Shown: one piece after another, positions 27,349 through 49,641 of the stretch
How positions within the stretch are numbered: position 1 is the stretch's first letter
How the letters are laid out: every line of letters begins with the position of its first letter
Assembly (NCBI GenBank): GCA_012862495.1
Contig: BLSG01000299.1
Span: 87,772-144,656 of the forward strand
Length of the DNA stretch: 56,885 nucleotides
Direction of reading: 5' to 3'
From: Thraustochytrium aureum
Taxonomy: Eukaryota
Notes under the pieces: generated by a model
Told to the model about the DNA's origin: nothing
What the model saw: only the letters and a program-made list of their open reading frames with translations
The model's database searches: none
Position numbers and translations under genes: made by a program

Positions 27349-30300
27349 ATGTCCGGTGGATTGGCAGGAGAAGGGCGCAGCTCGAGCGCAAACTCGAGCT
27401 CGAGCCCGTCGAGCATTGCGCCGCCGCCGTCGCCGCCGCCACCGCGAGAAGAGGGAGATGCATGGCAAGGTCCGCAGCGAGGGGCTCAGGAGGAGGAGGA
27501 AGACGCGGTTGAGACCCGACGTGAGAACGTGGAGCAGGAGAAGCGGGCGAGAGCGCCGCAAAACCGAAAGGCGGAAGCGCAGGCGTGCAAGCAGTGCGGG
27601 CGAACGGACTGCAAGCGAGCCAACAGCGCAAAGTGTCCAATGAACAAGAAGCGCCACGACAAAGCTCCGTCTGGGGCTTTCGGACCGAACACCCCACCCG
27701 GTCCTCCCTTGCCGCAAGGGCTAGGAAACCTCGAGTGGGAACGCTGCCCGCAGCCCGACGAGTACGACCTCGAGTTCGCCACTGAAGCGCGGGACGCGTA
27801 CTTCATGCCCCGCGTCAAGAAACAGTGCTCCGAGATGGTGGACAAGGTCAAGAGCAAGGCAATGCAGTTCCGCGTTGACGCCGCCGAACTCAGCATTCTC
27901 CACGTGTTCATGATTATCGCTCGCCCCATTCTCGAGCTGCTCGTGAGCTGGACCAACGAGCGCATCCGCACGCAGCTCTCTGGCAGCGAACAAACCGACC
28001 TCCCTGAGTTCATGGTCTTCTTTGCGGTTTACCTTACCCTTCAGCTCAGTGGCATGAAGTTAAATCGCACGCTGGTGATGTTGAAAGGAACCGCCATCAG
28101 GCGGGTGGACATGACAGCTTCTCGCTTCTCGCAGCTCGTCAGCCAAGTCAACGCTATCAACCCTTCGCATTGCATGGCTGCAGGGAACGAGTTCGACCAG
28201 GGGGTGGACCACGTCGCGAAGATGCGAGACTTTGAGGCGACGCTCTTCCAGACAAGCCGTGCCATTGTTGGCTCTCGCAGCCAGTTTCTCGTTCTGGACG
28301 ACGAGGTAGTCGGGACATGCTCGAAAAAGGTCCAACAGAGGGAAACCAGCCACAGGAAGGCTGGCAAAGACGGGTCCAAGAACGACGCTTTGGCGGACTC
28401 GCTCTTTCGCGTCATGCAAGGTATCCGGCACGTGCACAGGCTTGACTATACCCAGATGGGCGCAGTTTCCGAGCTGCTCGCTCAGTCTGACAGTATGGGT
28501 GGCGAGACCGGCAGGCTTGCAGGAAGCGTCGGGACAAGCGATCGCGGGTACAGCAAACCTGCGCTCTGGTCTCGGTTTCTGGCTTTCGGAATGGGTTTCG
28601 TGATGGTCTGCGACACGCTGGCTCACCCGTTCACAGCCCTGAGCAAGGCCATGGTCAAGGTGGTCAGGGCTGAGGAGAGGAAGAAGGTTGAGGTTGGGCC
28701 CGCCCGTGACACGGTGCACAACGTTGCCAGCCGCGCGCACGCGGTTGGGGTTAAAGGTGTGAGCCCGGACTTCACCATCGCGGACGGCCCACACCTCGGT
28801 CGAGAGATTTTCGCCGCCAAGGCCCAGACCGAGGTCAACGGCGCGACGAAAGAGCTTATGGCAATTGCTTTTCGGGACTATCAAGGGCGCGTTTCGGACA
28901 AGTCTAGCAGGATTCTGCGCTTTGTCGAGTCCGGGACGGGCCTGAGCGGCAAGCTCGTCAAAACCATGTGCATGCACAAGCTAGCCATCCCGCGAGAGTC
29001 AGCCGTGGCCAAGCGCGTTCTGTTTTTCCCGTGCGCGACAAACAGCAAGCCCGCAGCTGTGAAGGAGGTCGAAGCTGCCTTAAAAGGTAGAGGCGTGCGG
29101 GCCTTGACGTGTTGGCAGCGGTGCGCGGACTGGTTCGTGCTTCGCCTCTTTTGCGTCACGGGGGCGACAAGCGCCCAGATAGCCCGGGCGTCGCCAGAGG
29201 CACGCGCGCTTCTTGTGAGGTCGGCTGGCATTCCCGACCCTCTGGAGGGCAACAGCGCAGATGAGGACGAAGACCCCGACGAAGAGCCTGCCGTTGTCAC
29301 AACAGGGAGCGCCGGAGTCGACGAGGGGACCGATGACGACGGCAGCGACGACGGTGACTCGGACAACGATGACGAGGCCAACGAGGAGGGCCAAATGGAT
29401 GACGAGTTGCATGCTGTCGAGGCGGCGGTGGCGGCAGCAGCAATTGCGGAGACAGCCGCTGGCCTGGCCGCGGCGAAACGCGCGGCAGCGCTGGAGTTGG
29501 AGGGTCTTGACGCGGACGAGCAGAACCGAGCAGCAGCCGAAGCGCTTGGACGGTCCTGGTTTTCAAGCGAGGCTTGTCGACGGCGGCGATGAAGACGGGG
29601 ACACTGAACGCGTCCAAAGTCTTTGACGCAGTGCAGCGGTCGCCCTGGTGCCACGACATATTTGAGGTGGGTCTCTTGGCCAGCAAGGAGCACCCGTTCT
29701 TGGCTGCGTCGAGCGATGCGGTTGCTCGGGTTCTTCCCCCGGGATCCCCGGTTGACACCGAGTCTGTCCTTGCGAGCGTCGAGTTCAAGACCAGGTCGTC
29801 GAAGCTCGCGCAACAGCGAGCGCGGGACGTCGCAACCAAGCACTCTAGTTACTTTGCCTGCCGTGTTGGCGAGGAGACCTGGTGGGAGGCTATCCCGTAC
29901 GAGTACCGCGGCCGAGTCCTGCACCAGGCAACAGTCCTCGACGTCGACCACGTCCTGTACGTAGAGAGCACCACGACCGGCGTGATCTTTGCCTGCTTGG
30001 TGGAGGTCCCCGTCGCAGCCCGGGCCACGTACCGCAACTCGTTGCTCAGGTTCGGACACCTCATGTCGTGGGCGCACGAGAGCGTTGGCAAGGCTGGGCC
30101 GCCTCCCGAAGCGCCGGCCGATTTTGACGAGGCAGCTCGTGAGGTGATCGCCTCGCACATGCGGCTCTGGCTCGCTGTGCAAAAGCAGGTCGTGGACAGG
30201 CCACTACCACCCATCAAGAACTTCAAGTCCCTTGCTCAAGTCATTTACAACGCCCTGAAGGGTGGCCTGGACGGCAACGCCCAGTATGTCGCAGCCATCA

Positions 30301-31043
30301 CGGGTCCTGCTGTGCACAAGCTAAACTTCACCCAAACGATCGTATTCCGCGGTCTGAAGCAGCTCGTTGCGAACGCATTCGTAGTGTACCGCACCGTCAA
30401 AGCGTGCACGAGCGGCGCGGCCTTCGCATTCGAGTTCACGGAGCTCAAAAAGTTCCGGGCCGCGTGCAACAAAGTCATGGACCTGAAGGATTTCGCGTAC
30501 AACCTGGCTGAATCGCTTGTCGACCAGAGTCACGACCCTCTCTTCAGCCACAGTCGCCCTGCGGCCCAAGTCGAGCAGAGGGGGCCTGTTGCAAGCGCAA
30601 TTGTTGGCGCGGGCGTCGTCGAGGTGCCTGCGAGGGGCGCGGGCGTCGTCGAGGTGCCTGCGAGGGGCGCGGACGTCATCGAGGTGCCTGCGAGGGGCGC
30701 GGGCGTCATCGAGGTGCCCTCGCAGGCGCAAGTCCGGGCCGCGCTCAAGAAACGACCGGGGCGAACGGCGCTTTTGCGCGAATTCTTTGACGAACCCGCG
30801 CCGAAGCGAATCCGATTGTGCGGTGGTCTCGACCATCACCCCATCCCGATCGGGAGCTCGAGTAGCGGTGCCGTCCGTCAGCTAAGCTGCGTGATGTGTA
30901 ATGTCATCGGTGGGCGCCAACGAGCCAGAGACATGTGCTCTGTGTGTCGAGTCCCATTGCACAACACGCGCACGGCAGGCCAAGCGATATCCTGCTTCAC
31001 CAAGTTCCACCGCAGAGAGTCGATCAAGTCACACCACAAGTAG
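27349..31043 (+). mobile_element. piggyBac-family DDD transposase-derived gene with an internally inserted YqaJ/lambda-exonuclease-like domain; frameshift at ~29570
   Basis: piggyBac-like motifs in order: LLVSWTN, EFMVFFAVYL, MTASRF, VLDDE (D ~28297-28302), SDRGYS (D 28540), YNALKGGLDG (D 30270), ANAFVVY, and C-terminal CVMC..CSVC..PLH..CFTKFH (30888-31010). YqaJ-like motifs QRCADWF.LR...TG (29116), AMKTG, GLL..KEHPFLAASSD (D 29715), VEFKT (29781) and VLHQ lie between the second and third Asp. Confidence 0.85.
30606..30720 (+). repeat. 30-bp coding minisatellite, about 4 copies, encoding GAGVVEVPAR
   Basis: ggcgcgggcgtcgtcgaggtgcctgcgagg is repeated with few substitutions inside the transposase ORF. 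Confidence 0.95.
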
Positions 31044-31644
31044 GCGCATGCGAGCTCGCAACACCAAACGAAAAAGAAACCGCGCCCGCGTTGAGCTTGA
31101 GTCGGGATTCAACACATGTCCCTGTGATTGAACTTTACGCGGTTGGGCTTGTGCTATGGACCAAATCTAAGATGCGCGCATGACCATGCCGGTGTCACCA
31201 CCCTGGTTGTTCGCGACGCTGGGACAGTGAGCTGTCGCCCGCGGGCTCAGTGCCAGTGCATCGTTTTGACTTGGTTTTTTGCTAAAAAACGCACATAGAG
31301 CAATGTGAATGTTCGGTAATAGAACAAGTTGAATGTTCATCAAGTTCCGGAATTCATAACGGAAACATGCCAACTGGGACAGTTGACGAGCAGAACACAA
31401 CCAGAACGCAGGCCAGCCAGCCTGCCAGCCAGCCAACCAGCCTGCCTTCGCGGCCAGGCCTACGCGGCCAGGCCTTGACGAGGGCCGGCAAGAGCTGCGT
31501 TGGCGCTTGTGCTAGTTGTCTCGGCGACTGACGCCTCGTGCGGGCGCTGCGCGCGCAGGCTGCCCTGAGCCGCCAGGGCGCGTTGGAGGCAAGGGCGAGA
31601 AACGCTGGCGCCGGGAGGCTGGCACTCGCCCGCGCGGCGATATC

Positions 31645-34600
31645 ATGGGCGGAGCGTACTCTGTCAACGACCTGGTGGACCCTCGAATTGATGCGCGAAT
31701 CGAAGCGTCCGAACACCGCGCACGGCTCGAAGAGACGTTTCGCGAGTGGGGCCTTGAAGACGTACTAGATGTTGTGCGCGTCGTTAGGACTTCAGCGGGC
31801 AACCCGGAAAAGGAGGTTCGCAAAGCAGATCGCGTCAGGTGGCCAGTGCTGTTCAAGGCACTGGAAACCACCGAGCACGCGCTTTCTGAGCGACTCGAGA
31901 ATCGCAGAAGAACCACTTTCCACCCGGCTTGCCATGGGTACGCAATGGCTCTAGCAGCACCCAACTCGCCAGCGCCACTCGCCGAGTCTGGCTTTGCCGA
32001 CACGGCGCAAGACGGTCCCGGCTCGGCGCGCGCATTGCATACAGAGTCTGGGCATGAAGAGTCTGAGAACGGCGGAGCTGAAAACGACGAGGACGAAGGG
32101 CAGGAGGAAGTGGACGGCGACAGCGCTCAAGCTGAAGCAAACGACGAAGCAGCGCTTCAAGAAGCAGAGGCAGCTGCCGAGGGAGTAGTCGACGGTACTG
32201 ACTCGGCACAGAGCCCAAGAACCGTGCAGCTCAATCGCGCGCTCGACCCAGCAACAACGAACCCTGTATTCTTCGGCTACTCTGTCATAACTGCAGCGCA
32301 GGAGGACGCCGCGAGGCGGGCCGCCTTTGAGGAAAGCTGGGAGCGCGCCCAAGTTGAAGACAAGGAGGGGGAAATGCTTCAAGATGAGGAGGCGGAGATC
32401 CGAGAGCGTCACGAACGTCGTACGAACAAGTCCTCACGGGAAAGAAGCGTGTACTGGAAAAAGGTCGAAAAGGAGCGCGGCGATATCGCACAAAACTCCA
32501 AGCGTGAGCGCGCCGCTGCGCGCAAGGCAATGGCCGACAAAGAATACTCGCAGTTCATCCGCGAAATGGACCTGGCCGATGCAGCCAACGAAGCCAAATG
32601 GAAGCAAGAAGACTTGAAACGAAAGGCGGAGCAGCACAAGGAGGACAACGAGGAGCGGCGGCGGCTCAAAAGCGAGCTCGCAGACAACGCTGCACGGCTG
32701 GCCGCCTTCCTACAAGAGCGTGACGCGCCGAAAGGCGAAAAGCTCGTGGAGCAGAACGAGCATCTCCTCCTCCAGCGGCGCGAAGAGCAGCGGCGACTCA
32801 AGAACGAGGCTGGCTTGCGGCACATTGAGCTTCAAGAGGCCATCAAGTCCGCCGGGAAAAACGCAGACAAGAACCCGCATCGGTCCATGATCATGGTGGC
32901 CGAAGGCGAGCTGAAAAAGGCCGAAGCCGCGCTCAAGGAGGCATCGGACAGTCTTGCTACGCAAGAGGTAGAGCTGGAGCGAGCACGCGCGATGGAGGCA
33001 CGTGAGGCGCGATTTGTCTCCCTCTACCACGCGCTCGCTGACACCGACGCAGAACTCGGCCTTCTGGCGTACTCTATGGAGACGATTCGCGTTGGGTTGC
33101 TCCTAGTCATATCGTGCAAGGTGGTCTTGCAGAAAAAGCTCGACCTCGTCTTCGATCTGTTCTGCCCTCGCGGCGGGGACACTCTAAGCGAGGCAGACGT
33201 GCTCCGCGTCTTGGAAACGACGGTGCGCGTGCTCGAAGATCTTGGCGGTTGCCTTGCCACACCGCAGAGAAGGAGCGTCTTGGACCCGGCCAATGCCGAA
33301 CCCGACACTGGAGCTCAGGACGAGGAAAAAGTCAATGCTGATGCCGACGCAGCAACTGGGCCAAGGAGCCCAAAGGAAAAGCACGAATCTCGCAGCAAGC
33401 GCTCGAAGAAGAAAAGCAAGTCGAGCGTGCGCCGCAAAGTCGCGCGCCGCTGCCCTCGCGAGTTTCTCGAAAGCGTCGCCAAAAGGCAGTTTGACCTGGC
33501 CAGGGTACCTGCACAGGCGCCAAAACCTGCTGATGATGGAGCCGCGGAGGGGGGGGCAGACCCGGGAACTTGGCGCCGCGGCCGGGTCATGACCCGGTTC
33601 GAATTCGTCGCGTGCATGCACAAGTTAGTCGCCGTGTCTCAAGACCTCTCCAGCGTATTTGGCGTTGCCTGGAAGTACGCCAACATGAGCCGCTGGCAGC
33701 TCACGCGCATGTCTTACATCCAAAAGTACGAGCTGGGGATGCTGACGCTCGACGACATGAACAAGAGGTTTGCACGGCTCTGGGTAACGCACCGGCCCGC
33801 CCTCTCCGAGTCCCGCAAGGTGGAGATGCACGAGCGCGCCCTAGCGATGGGAGCCAACGATCCGCTCAAGCCCGATTACGCCAAGTTTCTGAAAAAGCGC
33901 AAGCACCGCCTCCAGAGCAACGTGGTCCCGCTCGAGCACGGGGCGCTGGGCAATATTCTCCACTACCGCGAAAGGCTCCTATACGACTCGGCGATGCTCG
34001 TGCAGGCCGCATGGCGAGCGAAAATGGGGCGCCGGCGTGCAGAGCTGGAGACAAAGCGCCGCGCTTTCTTTGCGGCATGGGACGCCGCCAAAGAAGAGTC
34101 TCGCGCCAAGGTACAGCGCGAGTACGCCAAGCGCGAGGCGCAGCCTTCGGGCGGGGTAGGCCGCATGAAGTGGGACGCAAAAGTGCGAATGAAGCAGGTC
34201 AAACTCCGCACCAAGGGCCAGACCCTCTCTCGAGAAGAGGTCGTCGCCCTCCTGGTTGAAGAAGAAGTCCGGGTCGCGCACGAGTCTGTGAACGAGCACT
34301 TTGAACGCATGAAGATGGATCGTGGACTCAAGAGCGACGAAGAGGTTGCGCAGGAGCGCAAGGAAGCCGAGGAGCTTCTCAAGGCCGCCGCGTTCAAGTC
34401 TGTGATCGCCACGGGGGTGATCAACGTCAAAGAGAAATCTGAGCGCGAGATCCTTCGCGAGGGGCGGCGCAAGCAGCGCAAGCTCCGCCAGGAGGCTGAG
34501 CGCGAGTGGGTCAAGCGGCGGGCCCTGGCCAAAAAGGGCTGGGACCCCGACAACCCAGAGACGTACCAGCTCGAAGAGCCCCTGACCCTGGAAACAAGGC

Positions 34601-37600
34601 GGGAAGACCTTGTCGACTTGGACAACCTCGACTATCTCGGCGTTGCCCCAAAGGACCGGTTGGGGAATCAAGAGGTTGAAGGCATATCTGGGCTGGATCC
34701 TGGGCGGACGCGCGAGGAAGACGAATCAGCCGCCCAAGATGAAAGAAAGATGACGGCGGCGAGCAAATCGAAGACGAGGAGGCGTCCGAGCGCCGAAAGG
34801 CCGAAGAGGAGCTCCGCGCCAAAATGCAGCTACTCCCGAGCGAGTTGCCGCCAGTCACGCTGCCGCTCCCAGAGTTGAAGCTGGGAACAAGGCATGCGCT
34901 CCTCCAGTTTGGGGCGCCGCTGGAGCAGCTGTACGATGTTGGCCTCACGGAAACCGAGTTTGAGCGCGTGCTGGAGCTGAGCAGGTCAGAGCCCGACGTG
35001 GAAGCGCTCGAGCATCGTCTTCGCTCTATCGGGACCACCGTGACCGCGAAGAAGGCAGAGGAATTAATGCAAGAGCTGCCCTCGAAGAAGCTGCTTATCA
35101 AGTTTATGGACAGATATCGGGAGCGCCCGCTCCGCGACCTCGAGGCAGAACTCGCAGAGCACTTTGGCCTCCTTCGGCGCGAAGCGCCAGTAATTGCAAG
35201 GGCGCTGCGCGCTTTGGTCGAGCAAGACCGTGCTCTGGCCGGCTGCGCAGACGTGCAAGGGTTGTGGCGCTCGAACTCCAGCGGGAGTTGCCGGGTTGCG
35301 GCGCGGGACATTGCGGAGACCTTGCAGGACATCGAGAACAAAGAGAGACACGCCGCCAAGCAGGCTAAAACCAAACTAGAGTCTGCCAAACTGCGCGCGG
35401 CAGAGCAAGCCGCGCTTGAAGGCGACGTTGGAGACAGCAGCGACAGCGATGGCGAAAGTGCCGACGGCGAAGCATCTCCCGACGCCGACCCTGCTCAAGT
35501 GGATTTGTCCGAGGAAGTCCCTGACACGAACTCTGTTGACCGCTCGCGCTCAGGGCAGAAAGCGATCGGCAACGGGGACGGGGACGGTCCTGACGACGGA
35601 GGTGCTCCGCCCGAGGCCGAGGAAAGCCCAGACCAACTTGCGCTGCAAGAAAGCAGCAAGCGAAAAGCTCGCGTGCGCGAGCTTCGCGATGGGGTCTTGG
35701 AGCGAATGCAAGAACTGCGCGTCGCCGAGCTTGAGTTCGAGCGTGCAGAACGAAACCGAATCGGCATTCTGTTCCGGGAAAATGCGCGCCTTGACGAGGC
35801 AACAGACGGACCCGAAGCGCGAGCATCTGCGTCGCTCTCGCAAGACACCCCGGTTGGAAGCCGAGCCTTGGACGCTGATGCATCAGGGGCCAGCTCGGAC
35901 GATGGGGCATCGCGCTCGCGCTCGAGCAAGCTGATTCGGCGCGTGTCCCGGTCGGTGTCGTTCCTGAACCCGGAGGAGGTGAGCGAACTCCTAAGCGAGG
36001 AGGAAAGCTACGAGCGGCGGGCAATGCAGGCCCTCAGCGAGCAGCGCCGGAAGGCGGGCTGGCTTGCGCTTCGCAGTGCTGCCAAAGTGCAGGCCCTTGG
36101 GCCGGGGTCCAAGGGCGATGTCGAGGCTGCGCGGTGGTTTCTCAACCTCGAAAAAGCCAGCATCCAAGAAGCAACCATTCGCCACCGTTGCAACTGGATG
36201 GAGCGGTATCGAACCATCCTCGCGCTGCCCGATGCCACGCCGGACGACTTTGTCCTCAAGTACTCGAAGCTGCTCAACCTGTACGAGGACTTTTTGCGCG
36301 CCGCCGTGGCCTTTGCACGCACCATAATCCTGGAGCAGCACCTTCCAGACAGTCAAAAATCGATCTTGCCAACCCGGTTCCGCGACGCGGACGTCGGTAG
36401 GGGGGACCAAAGGGCCTACTATTTAGTTGGCAACATCCACTTCAAGTTCGCCACGGACGAAGACGGGATTTGCAACGGCTCGGAGGAACATGCTGCCAAG
36501 TACTACGGTCACGCGATCCGAAACGCTGTTGCCTTTTCCAAGTGCAAGACCCCCCGTGTGCTAGCGCCCTTCGAGGTCACCGTAGACTACAACGGGTCGC
36601 GTGTGCTTGCGTCTGCTCATCTCCCGATTGAGTTTAACACGTTTGACGTCAAAGGCAAGCTCAAGCGCTCCGAGGTGGACCACGTGCTGGGCTCGTGCGA
36701 CAGGGGCAAGACGGTCAAGAACGAGGACAAGAGCTTGGACCGACTCTTAGCTCAGGCGGCGAGCAAGCTCTCCTTGTCGCAGCACGGCGTCAAAGGCGAG
36801 CGGGACCTGCTGCCCAAGTATCTTTGCACGCCCGCAGACATGTGTGGGTACCGCGACTTCAAGTCGGCCACGTTTTATCTCGTAAACTTTCGCCGCTTGT
36901 TTCCCCCAGAGGACCCCGAGGAGACGCCACACCTGCCGCGGGCGGCTCGCGGGCACTCTATCTTCTGGCGCCAGGCGAGGCCCGAGCTAGTTGCGCAAGG
37001 CGGTGTGCCGCTTAGCGCCGATTCGCTCTCGCTGTTCACGCTTGACACCCCTGACTGGGAGCAGCACAGCATCGCCGCAAAACAGGCAACTCGGCGCCTA
37101 GTCCGCGATCGGATCCCCGAGTACGCCGAAGAGCTGGCGCAGCGTCCGCGTGACGAGGTGCACGATTCGGACGTGACGCGCGAGATGCACGCCCGGGGCA
37201 TCAACATGAGGCACCTTGGCCTTTTGCGCTCCAAATTTTGGCGCCGCGTCAGAGGCACTGCGCGCGTGACCTTCTCGGAGCGGGTGCTGGTGTTTTCTCA
37301 CGACGCTACGAAGGAAGTCAAGCCCAATCAGCAAATACGGCTTCGCGACCAGCTCTTTCGCGTCTCGGACAACCCCGCAGACCCGTACAACAGCGAGACA
37401 CACACGATCTGCATCGCTCGCTCGGACCGCGCGGAATGCACCGACGATGGCGAGCAAAGCCAAGCGACTGCGAGTCGAGCAGCTGTCGCTGCTGCAGAAG
37501 AGCTCGACACAGATGTCCCGCTGTACTCGTCGTACGATGAAGAGGTGTTCACGGGCGAAGTCAGCTCCGAGCACAACTCAGACCTTGTTCGCTCGTTGCT

Positions 37601-40600
37601 CTTGTCCGAGATTCTCGCGCGCACGTTCAAGCAGCTGGCCCGAGCTTTGCTACGCGAAGTATGTGCAGAGCTGAAGGCACCGTCCGACATCGCAACAGAG
37701 CGCGTGCTAGTGCACATGCTCAACTTGATCTCCGGAGCGTCGAGCGGTTCTGACGCGTTTTGGATAGACGAGGTGGTCGGCGAGGTCGAGGAGCGTTTCG
37801 GCAAGTGCGCACTGAGCGAGATCGAAAAGCTCAACCTTCGAGTCGAGGTGGAGAATGCCGGTGTGCTGCCGCGCCTCGTGGACCGCTTTCTCGAGGGGTT
37901 TGGGGCCAGGATCCTCGAGCCGTGCCGCTCGCGCTTTGCCGAGGCCTGCGGCGCGATCAAAGATTGTGCGTGCTCGTTCGCCTTTTTGCAATCCGACCTG
38001 GCGCCGGTCGGCTGCAGGGTCAAGCACAACCTGTTCTTGCATGAATTCTGTCAGGGACTCGTTCTGGCGGCAGAGGGGCGGCTCGTTCGGTCCTTGACTT
38101 ATGAGTCAATCGTCGTTCGCGATGCGCCTTGCGCTTACTGGCCACTGAGCGAGCGTCCTGGATCCAAGATTGCGGTCAACCGCGGCTGGACTGGTCTGCG
38201 GCTGTCGGGCAGGATCACCGAAGCCAAGCCCGGAGCGCCGGCGTTTGTGAAAAACCAGTGGCCAGAGCGCTCGATGGGATTTCCTGCATATCGCGACCCA
38301 AGTGGGGAAAGCGACGAAGAGGAGGAGGGAGCGGCGGCGGCGGATCAGCCGGAGGGTAAGCGTGCCGGCTACGCCTCAATGAAGCTCGGCAAGCAGAGCG
38401 CAAAGGCGTTGGCCCAAGCGACCGCCGATTCAGACGGCCAAGCCCGCGGCGATTCCGACGAAGACACCGACGACGGCAAGGTCATGGCGGCGAGCAAAGC
38501 GTCCGCAAATCCAAAGGCAAAACGGAAGGGGAAAGCGAAACCCCCGCAAATGCATGTAGCGTCGCCTCGCGTTGACGTCCCCTTTCATGCGAAAGTGGTC
38601 CCGCGCGAGCGTCTCGCTGCGTTCAGCGTGGAGTGCTGGGCCCGCGCGGAGGTCGCCGACGGCAAAGAGCGTTTTCTCGTACGCTGCGGCCGGTTTGCGC
38701 TCATGTGCAATAGGCATCTGGCCTTTGCTTTCGTATTGTACGACGCCAAATTCGCGATCGAGGTGGAGCTCAGTTGCCCTGCAAAGTCACTCGACTACGA
38801 GTGGCACCATGTTGTCGGGACATTCGATGGGACGCAAGCAAGCCTCTACGTTGATTCAAAGTTGGTGGAGCGGGTGGACTATGACGAGGCCGCTCGTGAG
38901 CGAAGCCGTGGCTATGCGATGCGGCAGGCGCAGCTCGAAAGCGACCGACGTGCCGCAGAGCTTGCAGAGCGCGATGGTGCCGCCGCCGCCGCCCGCTCCG
39001 AGGCCTCGGTCTACTTCAAAAGCAAGGCCGGCCAAATCTTCCTGAGCTCGGCGATGAAGAGGCTGATCTCGCGCTCAGAAGCGCGCCTCAAGCTGAACAG
39101 AGACAAGGCCAGGATTCTGGGCCTCAAGGCGTTGAGTTCTGGCGAGGCCCGCACGCGGGCTGTCCAGGACTGGATTCGGAACCGCACTGGCGAGCACCTG
39201 GAGAAGATCACCGAAAAGCACCGCCAGCTGATCAAGAAGCGCAAAGAGCTGCGCAACAGGCGCCTAATGGTCGCCGAGCAAAAGGCAGGCCTCCCGCTGC
39301 GCATCGGGGCCGGATTCGCAAGCACCGGTGGGCCCAAGGGGTGCTTTACCGGGGCTCTTCAGCATGTAGCCGTCTACACGCACGCGCTGTCCCGCGACGC
39401 GATAAACCAGCGGTTCCACGTCGCAAAGAGCGACTTGGGGCAAGAAGCGGAGCGGCTTTTCGCAGAGTCTGCGCGATTCTTCACAGACGCGCTGGTCCGC
39501 TGCTACGATGACGAGATGGTGCTCGAGCAGTACGCGCGGGTGATAGCAGACTTCGCCGCTGTGGACCGCGACGGGCGCAGCGACGTGGATGCATTCGCGC
39601 GCAAGATCCGGCGCAACCTGCGTGGGTTTGAGCATACGGCAAACGTGCGTGGCATAGCTTCGCTCATGTGGTCGATGCCGGACATGGTCGAGTACGCAGT
39701 GGTGGCCACAGAGTGCTGGCGGGCTGCCAAGCGTGTGGACGAGGGGTACTTTGCGGGGGGGCTGTTTTCGGAGCGGAAGCGCAAGCTTTGGCTGCTGGAG
39801 CAAGTGCCGGATCGCTTTGGGCTGTGCGGGCCGGCGGCGCGCACAAGGCCGGCATTGCGCGAAGCGGCTGCAGACATGTACAAGTACGTTTTGTCTCACC
39901 AAGACGACTTTTACGGGCCGCACGTCGGGTACGTGGGGTGGATCTCGCGCTTGCGCACGCCGTCGCTGGTCTGCTATCTCGTCTCCAAGGTCAAGCACGT
40001 CCTCGCCAACAAGCACAAGCAGGACCAGTTCCGGCGCTTTGTCGAACAGCGCGCCCGCATTGACCGCTTGTTTGAGGAGTCCGAGGAAGTCGCGGCTCGC
40101 ACCGAGGTCTCAGAGGCCGAAAAAGAGTGCCAGCGGTGCCTCCTCACCCTAAACCTGTCGGAGGAGGCCCGGGACGTCGAGTCGGACGAGCTGCTCGACG
40201 TATGCGACAACATTCGACTGCTAGAGTCGTTGAACGTGTCGCGGTGCGCGGCGTTGAGTGCAAGCGCGCTCTGCAGCATCCCGGCCAAGTGCAAGTTTCT
40301 GGACGAGCTGCTCGTGAATGAGTGCGCAACAGTCGACGATGTCCTACTTTGCGCAGTTGCAGACAATTGCCCGAGCATCCGCGTGGTTGAAGTTGCGGGG
40401 TGCCGCCAGGTTTCTGACGCCGGCCTTGCAGCGCTCGCGCGCAACTGCAGCAACCTGCGGCAAGTGAATCTAGCGCGATGCGAGCTGATCAGTGACGCTG
40501 GCTTAGCAGAAGCTGCGCCGCACCTGCGCAAGCTAGCGTGGCTCGACTTGTCGTGGTGCCTCCTCCTGTCCAATAGCGGTTTGTACAAGCTGGCCAGCAC

Positions 40601-41830
40601 CGGGCCTGCAAAATCGCTGGTGCACTTGGGCCTCGTCGGGTGCCGTCGCCTCAGCGACGACGGCATCCTGGCAATGTGCAAGCACCTCACAGCGCTCGAG
40701 TGGCTTGACGTTTCGTACTGCAACAAAATTACGGACCTGGGCGGCGTTGCAATCACGCACAGCCTCCTCGAGCTTCGCGTGCTGAGCTTTGCAGACTTGT
40801 TCCAGATCACCGACAAGCCCTTTTTCTTCGACGCTGTGGGTGACGGGCGGGCCATGGCTGACCAGAGGATGCTGGGCAAACTGGAGGAGCTTGACCTCAC
40901 AGACTGCAAGCAGGTCACCGACCACGCGGTGGCCGAGATTGCGCGGCGCGCACCTCGCCTAGGAACTCTCAAGCTCAACAGCTGTGCGCGAATCACGGAA
41001 GAGGCTGTCAANNNNNNNNNNNNNNNNNNNNNNNNNNNNNNNNNNNNNNNNNNNNNNNNNNNNNNNNNNNNNNNNNNNNNNNNNNNNNNNNNNNNNNNNN
41101 NNNNNNNNNNNNNNNNNNNNNNNNNNNNNNNNNNNNNNNNNNNNNNNNNNNNNNNNNNNNNNNNNNNNNNNNNNNNNNNNNNNNNNNNNNNNNNNNNNNN
41201 NNNNNNNNNNNNNNNNNNNNNNNNNNNNNNNNNNNNNNNNNCAACGTGCTCGTCCGCTGCCCGATCACTGGGGCTCGGCGCGGGGAGGCACTTGTTGCTC
41301 TGGACTTTTCGTACTGCTCGGAGGTGACTGGGGCAACGCTCGCGGTTCTCGGCGAGAGTTGCCCGCAGCTCCAGTCGCTCGCGTTGTCAGGGTGCGTCAA
41401 GCTCACGGACAAGCACCTGCGCAAGCTCTGTCTAGCTTGCTCGGGCCTCCAGACGCTCGCTCTGGCGCATTGCAAGAACCTGTCGGACTCTGCCGTGGAG
41501 GCCATGTGCGAGCACTTGTGGATCGAGCAGCTCGACCTTTCGTATTGCAACCGCATCACGGACCGTTCGCTTGGTATGCTGGCAGAGCACTTTTCGGGCT
41601 TGACGCACCTCGGCCTCGCCTGGTGTCGCAAGTTGACGGACTCTGGGTTGAACGTGCTTGCCGAGTCGTGCACGTGGCTCGCCGAGCTGCACGTGGCCGG
41701 CTGCGATGCGTTTTCGCAGGGCGTTCTCGACAAGGTTCGCTCGACAAACCCTGGTTGTTCTGTATATCGGCAGCGCATCGAGGTGTCCAACCCAGGCGAT
41801 CCAGACCGCCCGTGCGCCCTCTTCTGCTGA
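31645..41830 (+). CDS. Giant (~3300 aa) multidomain protein: coiled coil, EF-hand-like, IQ, Clu (clustered-mitochondria) domain, LamG/concanavalin-like, C-terminal FBXL-type LRRs; frameshift ~34745; N gap 41012-41241
   Basis: EF-like [23 protein letters not shown]-like [12 protein letters not shown]; Clu-like [40 protein letters not shown]; LamG-like [43 protein letters not shown]; many LxxLxLxxC LRRs from ~40140 to ~41760. Confidence 0.8.
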
Positions 41831-48511: not shown

Positions 48512-48617
48512 GACCCTAACCTCCTGTACGACCCTAGCCACCTTCGCCAACCCTAGCCAACCCTAACTAACCCTAGCCAACCCTAGCAGACCCTAGCCAA
48601 CCCTAACTGGCCCTAGC
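48512..48617. repeat. Telomere-like degenerate 10-bp repeat (CCCTAGCCAA / CCCTAACTAA)
   Basis: About 9-10 CCCTA(G/A) units, mostly at 10-bp spacing, close to the gap at 48704-49290. Confidence 0.75.
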
Positions 48618-49641
48618 GAAGCGATTGTTTGATCGTGCGAGTTTGCGCACGAAGTGATCCTCTTGGATTGTTGTTGATTTCTCTTCTTTCAAGATCAATC
48701 AAGNNNNNNNNNNNNNNNNNNNNNNNNNNNNNNNNNNNNNNNNNNNNNNNNNNNNNNNNNNNNNNNNNNNNNNNNNNNNNNNNNNNNNNNNNNNNNNNNN
48801 NNNNNNNNNNNNNNNNNNNNNNNNNNNNNNNNNNNNNNNNNNNNNNNNNNNNNNNNNNNNNNNNNNNNNNNNNNNNNNNNNNNNNNNNNNNNNNNNNNNN
48901 NNNNNNNNNNNNNNNNNNNNNNNNNNNNNNNNNNNNNNNNNNNNNNNNNNNNNNNNNNNNNNNNNNNNNNNNNNNNNNNNNNNNNNNNNNNNNNNNNNNN
49001 NNNNNNNNNNNNNNNNNNNNNNNNNNNNNNNNNNNNNNNNNNNNNNNNNNNNNNNNNNNNNNNNNNNNNNNNNNNNNNNNNNNNNNNNNNNNNNNNNNNN
49101 NNNNNNNNNNNNNNNNNNNNNNNNNNNNNNNNNNNNNNNNNNNNNNNNNNNNNNNNNNNNNNNNNNNNNNNNNNNNNNNNNNNNNNNNNNNNNNNNNNNN
49201 NNNNNNNNNNNNNNNNNNNNNNNNNNNNNNNNNNNNNNNNNNNNNNNNNNNNNNNNNNNNNNNNNNNNNNNNNNNNNNNNNNNNNNNNNNGCTCGAGTGG
49301 AGCATGAGCGAGCGAGAGACCGGAAGAGAAAGTGAATTGAAATCTTCTTCAAAGAGCTGTGCGGCGGATTTGCGGGGCGGTGGGCTTGTGGATGCGAAGA
49401 CCAAGACGAAGGACCATGTCCAGTAGAGAGTACCCTACCGAAACGAACGAAACCAACGTAGGGGCACATTCGCCGTTGCCAAAACGACCGCTGCCGACTG
49501 CCTCCAGTGCACGTCTCGATCAAAGGGGTTTGCACAGAGGGGCGCCATACCGCGCCACAGGAGCCCGATGTTCCCTATGTTCTGGCGGTGCGTTGGCAGG
49601 CGGGAGGGCTCGAGGCGCGTCGCGACTCGTGGCGGGACTGA

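Follow-up and report, generated by a model that had tools for sequence, protein, structure and literature searches.

A probably immobile piggyBac-type transposase gene with a nested lambda-type exonuclease domain in Thraustochytrium aureum

Results

The gene and its two catalytic parts

The window analysed here is a 56,885-nt stretch of Thraustochytrium aureum contig BLSG01000299.1, and all coordinates refer to it. Its subject is a gene that we read as a three-aspartate (DDD) transposase of the piggyBac superfamily, in which a lambda-exonuclease/YqaJ-type domain is situated between the second and third catalytic aspartates (D2 and D3). An earlier note, made from the sequence, had listed piggyBac and YqaJ motifs here with D2 and D3 about 575 codons apart; we find these motifs at the same places and in the same order, and count 577 codons between the two aspartates. 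The principal parts are as follows, with residues numbered in Trichoplusia ni (T. ni) piggyBac where indicated.

27349..31043 (+), whole gene, 1,231 codons counting an extra base from run X1
27349-29592 (+), open reading frame (ORF) P0001, 747 aa, 5' part of the gene as split in the window
29511-31043 (+), ORF P0002, 510 aa, overlapping P0001, 3' part of the gene
27817..28803 (+), first half of the piggyBac DNA-binding/dimerisation domain, with the RNase H core carrying D1 and D2
28297..28299 (+), D1, intact, aligned to T. ni D268
28540..28542 (+), D2, intact, aligned to T. ni D346
28804..28983 (+), approximate limits, beta-strands where piggyBac has its insertion domain (387-452 in the modelled relative P0008)
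29020..30176 (+), nested lambda-exonuclease/YqaJ-type PD-(D/E)XK domain, mapped from P0008 residues 466-760
29116..29163 (+), QR..WF..R....TG motif, conserved, aligned to the N-terminus of LHK-Exo (3syy)
29610..29612 (+), Ala at a conserved exonuclease position where 96 of 103 aligned rows have Glu
29715..29789 (+), exonuclease D...ExK core, intact (D 29715, E 29781, K 29787)
30246..30272 (+), YNALKGGLD motif, with D3 at 30270, intact, aligned to T. ni D447
30888..31010 (+), C-terminal Cys-rich domain of piggyBac type, CxxC...CxxC...H...C....H, by profile match

The assignment of 27817..28803 comes from Pfam PF13843 (E=0.001), from a family profile that aligns to residues 131-307 of the T. ni piggyBac structure 6x67, and from the P0008 model, which superposes from residue 84. 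To judge from the same model, the beta-strands at 28804..28983 are probably equivalent to the T. ni insertion domain (372-433). We take QR..WF..R....TG to be the 5'-phosphate-binding motif of lambda-type exonucleases, and across the family rows the D...ExK residues are present in 113 of 118 (D), 117 of 126 (E) and 115 of 125 (K). The Cys-rich tail matches 6x67 (549-594) and 9c0f (526-574) by profile, its Cys and His residues being invariant in alignment A3.

Taken alone, the window protein scores weakly. Pfam returns DDE_Tnp_1_7 at E=0.001, under that model's cut-off, and does not match YqaJ; PHROG 434 (RecE-like exonuclease) is matched at E=0.029, compared with 9.4e-6 for the homologue P0003; and a PDB sequence search with P0001 alone gives only a low-complexity match. 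The beyond-chance evidence for the fusion is the family profile together with the structure model.

A large family with the same nested layout

A HMMER search with P0002 over 1.84 billion representatives (E<=0.001) finds 457 matching clusters, and we examined the best 150 of these together with P0003 (151 proteins). Thirty-eight are at least 850 aa long; the N-terminal half is also matched in 32 of the 38, in 30 of them into the D1/D2 region. Thirty-five entered a full-length alignment; three were left out, P0004 and P0109 as long gene-model fusions and P0152 for want of the N-terminal half. D2 and D3 are separated by 444-834 residues in all 35, as against 101 in T. ni, and 27 of the 35 retain both active sites (D/D/D and exonuclease E/D/E/K). 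Pfam finds YqaJ in 13 of the 35 and DDE_Tnp_1_7 in 8. The family profile aligns to 6x67 (E=1.4e-20) discontinuously, over 131-307, 432-516 and the Cys-rich tail, and the insert between the matching stretches has profile matches to LHK-Exo and mimivirus R354.

At the level of single residues, the hairpin-binding Tyr of the T. ni Y439/N440 pair is kept in 103 of 119 rows, and the Arg that profile alignment equates with R275 of the T. ni omega-loop in 23 of 35. In most members Thr or a similar residue stands in place of the fourth Asp (T. ni D450).

An AlphaFold2 model of P0008 (35-40% identical to P0002), built from a 143-row alignment, has a predicted local distance difference test score (pLDDT) of 90 and a predicted template modelling score (pTM) of 0.82. 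Its top two Foldseek matches are piggyBac and lambda exonuclease. It superposes on piggyBac 6x67 with Z 25.9 and rmsd (root-mean-square deviation) 4.3 over 388 aligned residues (model 84-889, 6x67 117-526), and on lambda exonuclease 3sm4 with Z 15.7 and rmsd 3.2 over 201 (model 466-760, chain 13-226). The nuclease insert follows the beta-strands at the insertion-domain position, and the model has the RNase H fold and split DNA-binding/dimerisation domain of piggyBac; the DDD triad and Cys-rich domain that also mark piggyBac come from the profile alignments. The earlier note had proposed such a model as a check on whether the three aspartates meet in one RNase H fold. One piggyBac fold with YqaJ as an inserted domain is indeed what the relative's model has, and as one superposition covers both sides of the insert, D1, D2 and D3 would converge in one site. 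Set against this, the fold is predicted for P0008 and not for the window protein itself; a single-sequence model of P0002 is poor (pLDDT 36); and the convergence rests on superposition rather than on Asp-Asp distances.

The closest named relatives carry the labels Hondaea fermentalgiana and Durusdinium trenchii. In a quick tree of 74 rows the window copy groups with P0003, P0004 and P0007, at 99 in the Shimodaira-Hasegawa-like approximate likelihood ratio test (SH-aLRT). P0007 (1,219 aa), of the same clade, is full length and intact though it lacks D1, D2, D3 and ExK; its cluster has a second member of equal length, and it is a candidate domesticated gene. In the public gene models P0003, P0004 and P0109, family members are joined to neighbours of no kinship with them (FKBP, peroxidase, histone acetyltransferase) and so bear misleading names. 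Contigs of runs X2 and X3 match the window at 29105-29162 over the QR..W motif only and then diverge, indicating further family members in the samples concerned.

Insensitive pattern scans of viral contigs and prokaryote genomes found no relatives, and the sole lead from an Atlas search with P0003, an oomycete-labelled cluster scoring 0.89 (SAP in 20%), is under the reliable range. A word-index search gave no matches for P0001 and only 2 proteins for alignment A2, which is not evidence of absence given the 457 clusters found by HMMER.

The reading frame and the reality of the fusion

The division of the gene into two ORFs, for which an indel near 29570 had been proposed, can be placed at one site.

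29560-29563 (+), T-run at which the frame is apparently broken; run X1 contains an additional T

The run X1 contig (1,613 bases, depth 4.5) spans 28904-30515. It has five substitutions and, within this T-run, an extra T that opens the frame, and it bridges the exonuclease part to D3. Relatives read across the site without interruption as SWFFSRG (P0109, P0004) or SWLFSRG (P0003). Because X1 and the relatives have an open frame there, the break is likely to be an assembly error; the X1 contigs have a depth below 6. Single additional bases also occur in X1 at four coding sites of the neighbouring genes, in about 8 kb of contigs listed, and one of them fuses two host ORFs. A programmed frameshift was rejected, there being no XXXYYYZ slippery site by eye and the frame being open in X1 and the relatives; an intron was rejected as both keep the frame open.

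The frame break inside the exonuclease, together with the missing Pfam match to YqaJ, might suggest that the exonuclease belongs to an independent element or gene that lies here by chance, or that the gene is an assembly chimera. However, the single ORFs of many relatives have identical nesting, the second data set bridges the region with an open frame, G+C content at third codon positions (GC3) is uniform along the gene (0.68-0.79), and no inner inverted repeats were found beyond chance-like matches. A separate nested insertion is refuted by the conserved single-ORF relatives, and a chance nesting or chimera of any kind is so improbable as to be negligible. That the gene is a true fusion of a piggyBac-type transposase and a nested lambda exonuclease, as the earlier note supposed, we regard as practically certain.

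Other features and neighbouring genes

The gene has these further features, the motifs being read from the sequence.

27589..27636 (+), N-terminal Cys cluster (CKQCG...C), zinc-knuckle-like by sequence, with a presumed role of that kind
27949 (+), WTN motif
28111 (+), MTASRF motif
29260..29550 (+), acidic low-complexity loop within the exonuclease
29586 (+), AM..G motif
29694 (+), PFLAASSD motif
29781 (+), EFK motif
29922 (+), HQ motif
30372 (+), NAFVVY motif
30606..30718 (+), 3.8 in-frame copies of a 30-bp tandem repeat, located in the linker ahead of the Cys-rich domain; P0003 lacks the repeat

The Cys cluster is preceded by a low-complexity protein start, and P0008, P0005 and P0109 have comparable clusters. 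The stretch containing the acidic loop is 132 residues long in the window copy and 26-243 in 35 relatives.

Both neighbours are eukaryotic host genes by Pfam. Upstream, head-to-head with the transposase gene, is an LRR gene (GC3 0.73), and downstream is a CLU/LamG/LRR gene (GC3 0.71). In the latter, the ORFs 31516-34878 and 34743-41327 are joined by the extra base of X1 at 34741 (window 31645-41327) to encode a protein of some 3,200 aa that has CLU, LamG and LRR domains. Of the window, 3,087 bases are N, in 11 runs that all lie outside the transposase gene. At 48530-48629, adjoining an assembly gap, is a 10-bp tandem repeat (ACCCTAGCCA-like) with the look of a degenerate telomeric repeat.

The state of the window copy

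Two points escaped the earlier note, namely that the exonuclease Glu is Ala at 29610 and that the element has no recognisable ends. The Glu belongs to the M..G..NE motif of the lambda exonuclease/YqaJ family, and we take the conserved Glu of this M..G..E helix to correspond to lambda E85; a Gln conserved in 126 of 135 rows is also replaced, by Arg. Neither TTAA nor ATAT-CC ends are present in the flanks, and their inverted repeats do not exceed 9 bp. X1 has the identical 3' junction, with indels in both flanks, and over 3,021 covered bases differs from the window copy in 11 codons, none of them silently, one change altering a Lys that 31 of 34 members share. Silent changes make up 13 of the 21 differences listed between X1 and the window in the neighbouring genes (Fisher p=6e-4 against the transposase gene). 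Compared with X3, 4 of 15 differences in the window copy are silent, the neutral expectation being 3.6. Because it has no ends, has lost the Glu to Ala and has no silent change among 11 codon differences, the window copy looks immobile and under relaxed selection; we hold immobility itself to be probable, and the copy is likely to be an immobile remnant.

Several observations weigh against this interpretation. The ORF of 1,231 codons has no stop and D1-D3 are intact, and at none of 38 conserved transposase positions does the copy depart from the family consensus. The complete lack of silent changes is itself below the neutral expectation (P=0.049). Moreover, the haplotype comparison sets contigs of depth 3-6 against a window with errors of its own, and one X1 difference near a contig end is unlisted.

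The main rival to the reading as an immobile remnant is domestication, whereby the copy would be a host gene that keeps the transposase and is losing the exonuclease, its amino-acid changes reflecting positive selection. An intact ORF without ends between host genes, with GC3 like that of the LRR and CLU genes, would be expected of such a gene, as would the unaltered transposase positions; run X3 contigs cover parts of the gene (that X3 is RNA is a guess), and the clade contains the full-length, triad-less P0007. However, purifying selection is not seen in the comparison with either X1 or X3, the Lys altered in X1 is among the conserved residues, and no orthologous locus was seen in another genus. 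We consider domestication rather unlikely. As to loss of the exonuclease, the window copy deviates at 5 of 38 conserved exonuclease positions compared with 0 of 38 in the transposase (p=0.054 at a 75% threshold, p=0.17 at 60%), and the pattern recurs in P0006, P0024 and P0055, so that selective decay of the exonuclease alone is at most a borderline suggestion from these positions.

With D1-D3, the Cys-rich tail and the D...ExK core all intact, the window copy might instead be an active autonomous transposon whose ends are unrecognised. This seems very improbable, as there are no inverted ends, the flanks differ by indels between haplotypes, and the X1 depth over the gene is about 3-5, like that of the neighbours, although depth is a poor measure of copy number. 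An immobile remnant is the reading we retain.

Elements and fragments in metagenomes

A metagenome scan gave 6 loci out of 531 candidate stretches. L001:69-4140 is a whole element of about 4.1 kb, with one ORF of 1,102 aa enclosed by 14-bp inverted repeats without mismatch, ATATCCCGATATCT, at 69 and 4140; none of 200 shuffles reaches a length of 14. The terminal repeats (CCCGATATCT) start with C, giving the CCC...GGG ends of ordinary piggyBac. The flanks are ATAT, not TTAA. As one of them lies in an AT run and an empty site was not seen, ATAT is no more than a candidate target site duplication. PMC5381638 mentions rare ATAT sites. A scan of viral contigs with the L001 end motif gave 120+ single matches, which we took as chance. 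L001 looks intact and is the best experimental candidate, while the window copy is a poor test subject.

L004:317-3424 is a broken member in three ORFs; beside it are an ORF whose translation we read as DNA-glycosylase-like and a long repeat protein rich in glycine and tyrosine. At L002:2215-2322, 3' of a family member, is a pair of 36-bp inverted repeats (92% complementary) with a short internal tandem repeat, a possible subterminal structure. Many full-length members lie on contigs of 3.5-5.4 kb, about the size of the element, which hints that assemblies may break at repeat ends. The Hondaea fermentalgiana relatives, which are merged into gene models, have different neighbours, in keeping with a mobile family.

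Discussion

We favour, with moderate confidence and with the proposed mechanism included, the view that the locus is a single piggyBac-superfamily DDD transposase gene with a complete nested lambda-type exonuclease, and that it is an immobile copy from a large family. With T. ni piggyBac (6x67/6x68) and piggyBat (9c0f) the family shares the order of the DDD residues, the motifs, the fold (Z 25.9 and 23.4) and the Cys-rich tail. It differs from T. ni piggyBac in having some 300 extra exonuclease residues between D2 and D3 and in lacking D450; L001 is flanked by ATAT instead of TTAA, and the window copy has no ends. With lambda exonuclease, LHK-Exo (3syy) and mimivirus R354 (Pfam YqaJ, PF09588) the whole fold is shared (Z 15.7, 14.8 and 12.3), as are the motifs QR..W, M..G..E, S.D and ExK. 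The lambda-type exonuclease forms a ring that is partnered with an annealing protein, whereas the family's domain is embedded in a transposase instead of forming a free ring, and in the window copy has Ala for Glu.

Full-text literature searches found no description of a piggyBac with a nested exonuclease, the Repbase/Dfam consensus definitions being outside their scope. The nested family may already be catalogued in Repbase/Dfam as PiggyBac-X, a divergent piggyBac class with the Repbase names piggyBacX and piggyBacA. A DNA/PiggyBac-X class (RepeatMasker/Dfam) is reported in Plasmodiophora brassicae (10.1101/2025.07.30.667784). The main text of PMC5381638 lacks the word 'exonuclease', and that study excluded sequences with long insertions.

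The novelty claimed in the earlier note holds for the layout, as far as the literature searched goes, but is smaller than claimed, since this is a large family and there are published precedents in other transposons. KolobokE (PMC9587614) and ISL2EU (PMC4122938, PMC4482050) are eukaryotic DDE transposons that also carry a lambda/YqaJ-like nuclease; as described there, each has its own transposase type with the nuclease downstream or in a separate ORF, whereas the window gene is piggyBac-like with the nuclease between D2 and D3. The function of the ISL2EU nuclease is stated as unknown in PMC4482050. In Dada of Laccaria and Ectocarpus, PMC3706591 describes an exonuclease nested in the DDE core after the second Asp, a published precedent for nesting, although that exonuclease is of the DEDDy 3'-5' type and the superfamily is an unrelated one.

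In intact members the exonuclease is probably active. We propose that the DDD site of active members would cut and paste as in piggyBac, with hairpins on the transposon ends and a 4-base staggered target, and that after excision the 5'-to-3' exonuclease tethered to it would resect the donor flanks, removing their 5' overhangs. The resected empty site would then be mended by copying the sister or homologous chromosome instead of being sealed seamlessly, and the donor copy would be restored with a net gain in copies. Lambda exonuclease acts in the 5'-to-3' direction. In piggyBac the ends form hairpins and the overhangs are complementary, allowing seamless repair (PMC7351741), and such repair alone would give no copy gain. 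As the family keeps the hairpin-contacting Tyr-Asn, the hairpin chemistry likely persists. Donor-flank resection as the job of the exonuclease is nevertheless a tentative assignment, somewhat short of an even chance. A real difficulty is that lambda exonuclease requires a toroidal oligomer (PMC6137704) while piggyBac works as a dimer (PMC7351741), and the nested domain may act differently. The proposal also fits the window copy poorly, as it has no ends, has lost the exonuclease Glu and has no visible purifying selection.

An alternative is that the exonuclease processes the target or the ends of the transposon by removing flanking bases or 5' flaps; it would then replace or supplement hairpin opening and free the element from TTAA targets. 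The ATAT flanks of L001 and the replacement of D450 by Thr or similar residues are in keeping with this, as is the location of the insert at the insertion domain, which in T. ni (372-433) contacts hairpin and target (PMC7351741). Retention of the hairpin-binding Tyr in most rows, retention of the omega-loop Arg, and CCC...GGG ends like those of ordinary piggyBac argue in the other direction, and we consider this role less likely than donor-flank resection. Other or structural roles for the exonuclease would take up what probability these two leave.

On a speculative view, to which we give no great weight, the family would be an undescribed and widespread protist lineage of piggyBac with two nuclease centres, in which donor-flank resection would turn transposition into a copy-gaining cycle at non-TTAA sites. 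As both active sites lie in one protein and each can be knocked out separately, the role of YqaJ-like nucleases in eukaryotic transposons becomes testable.

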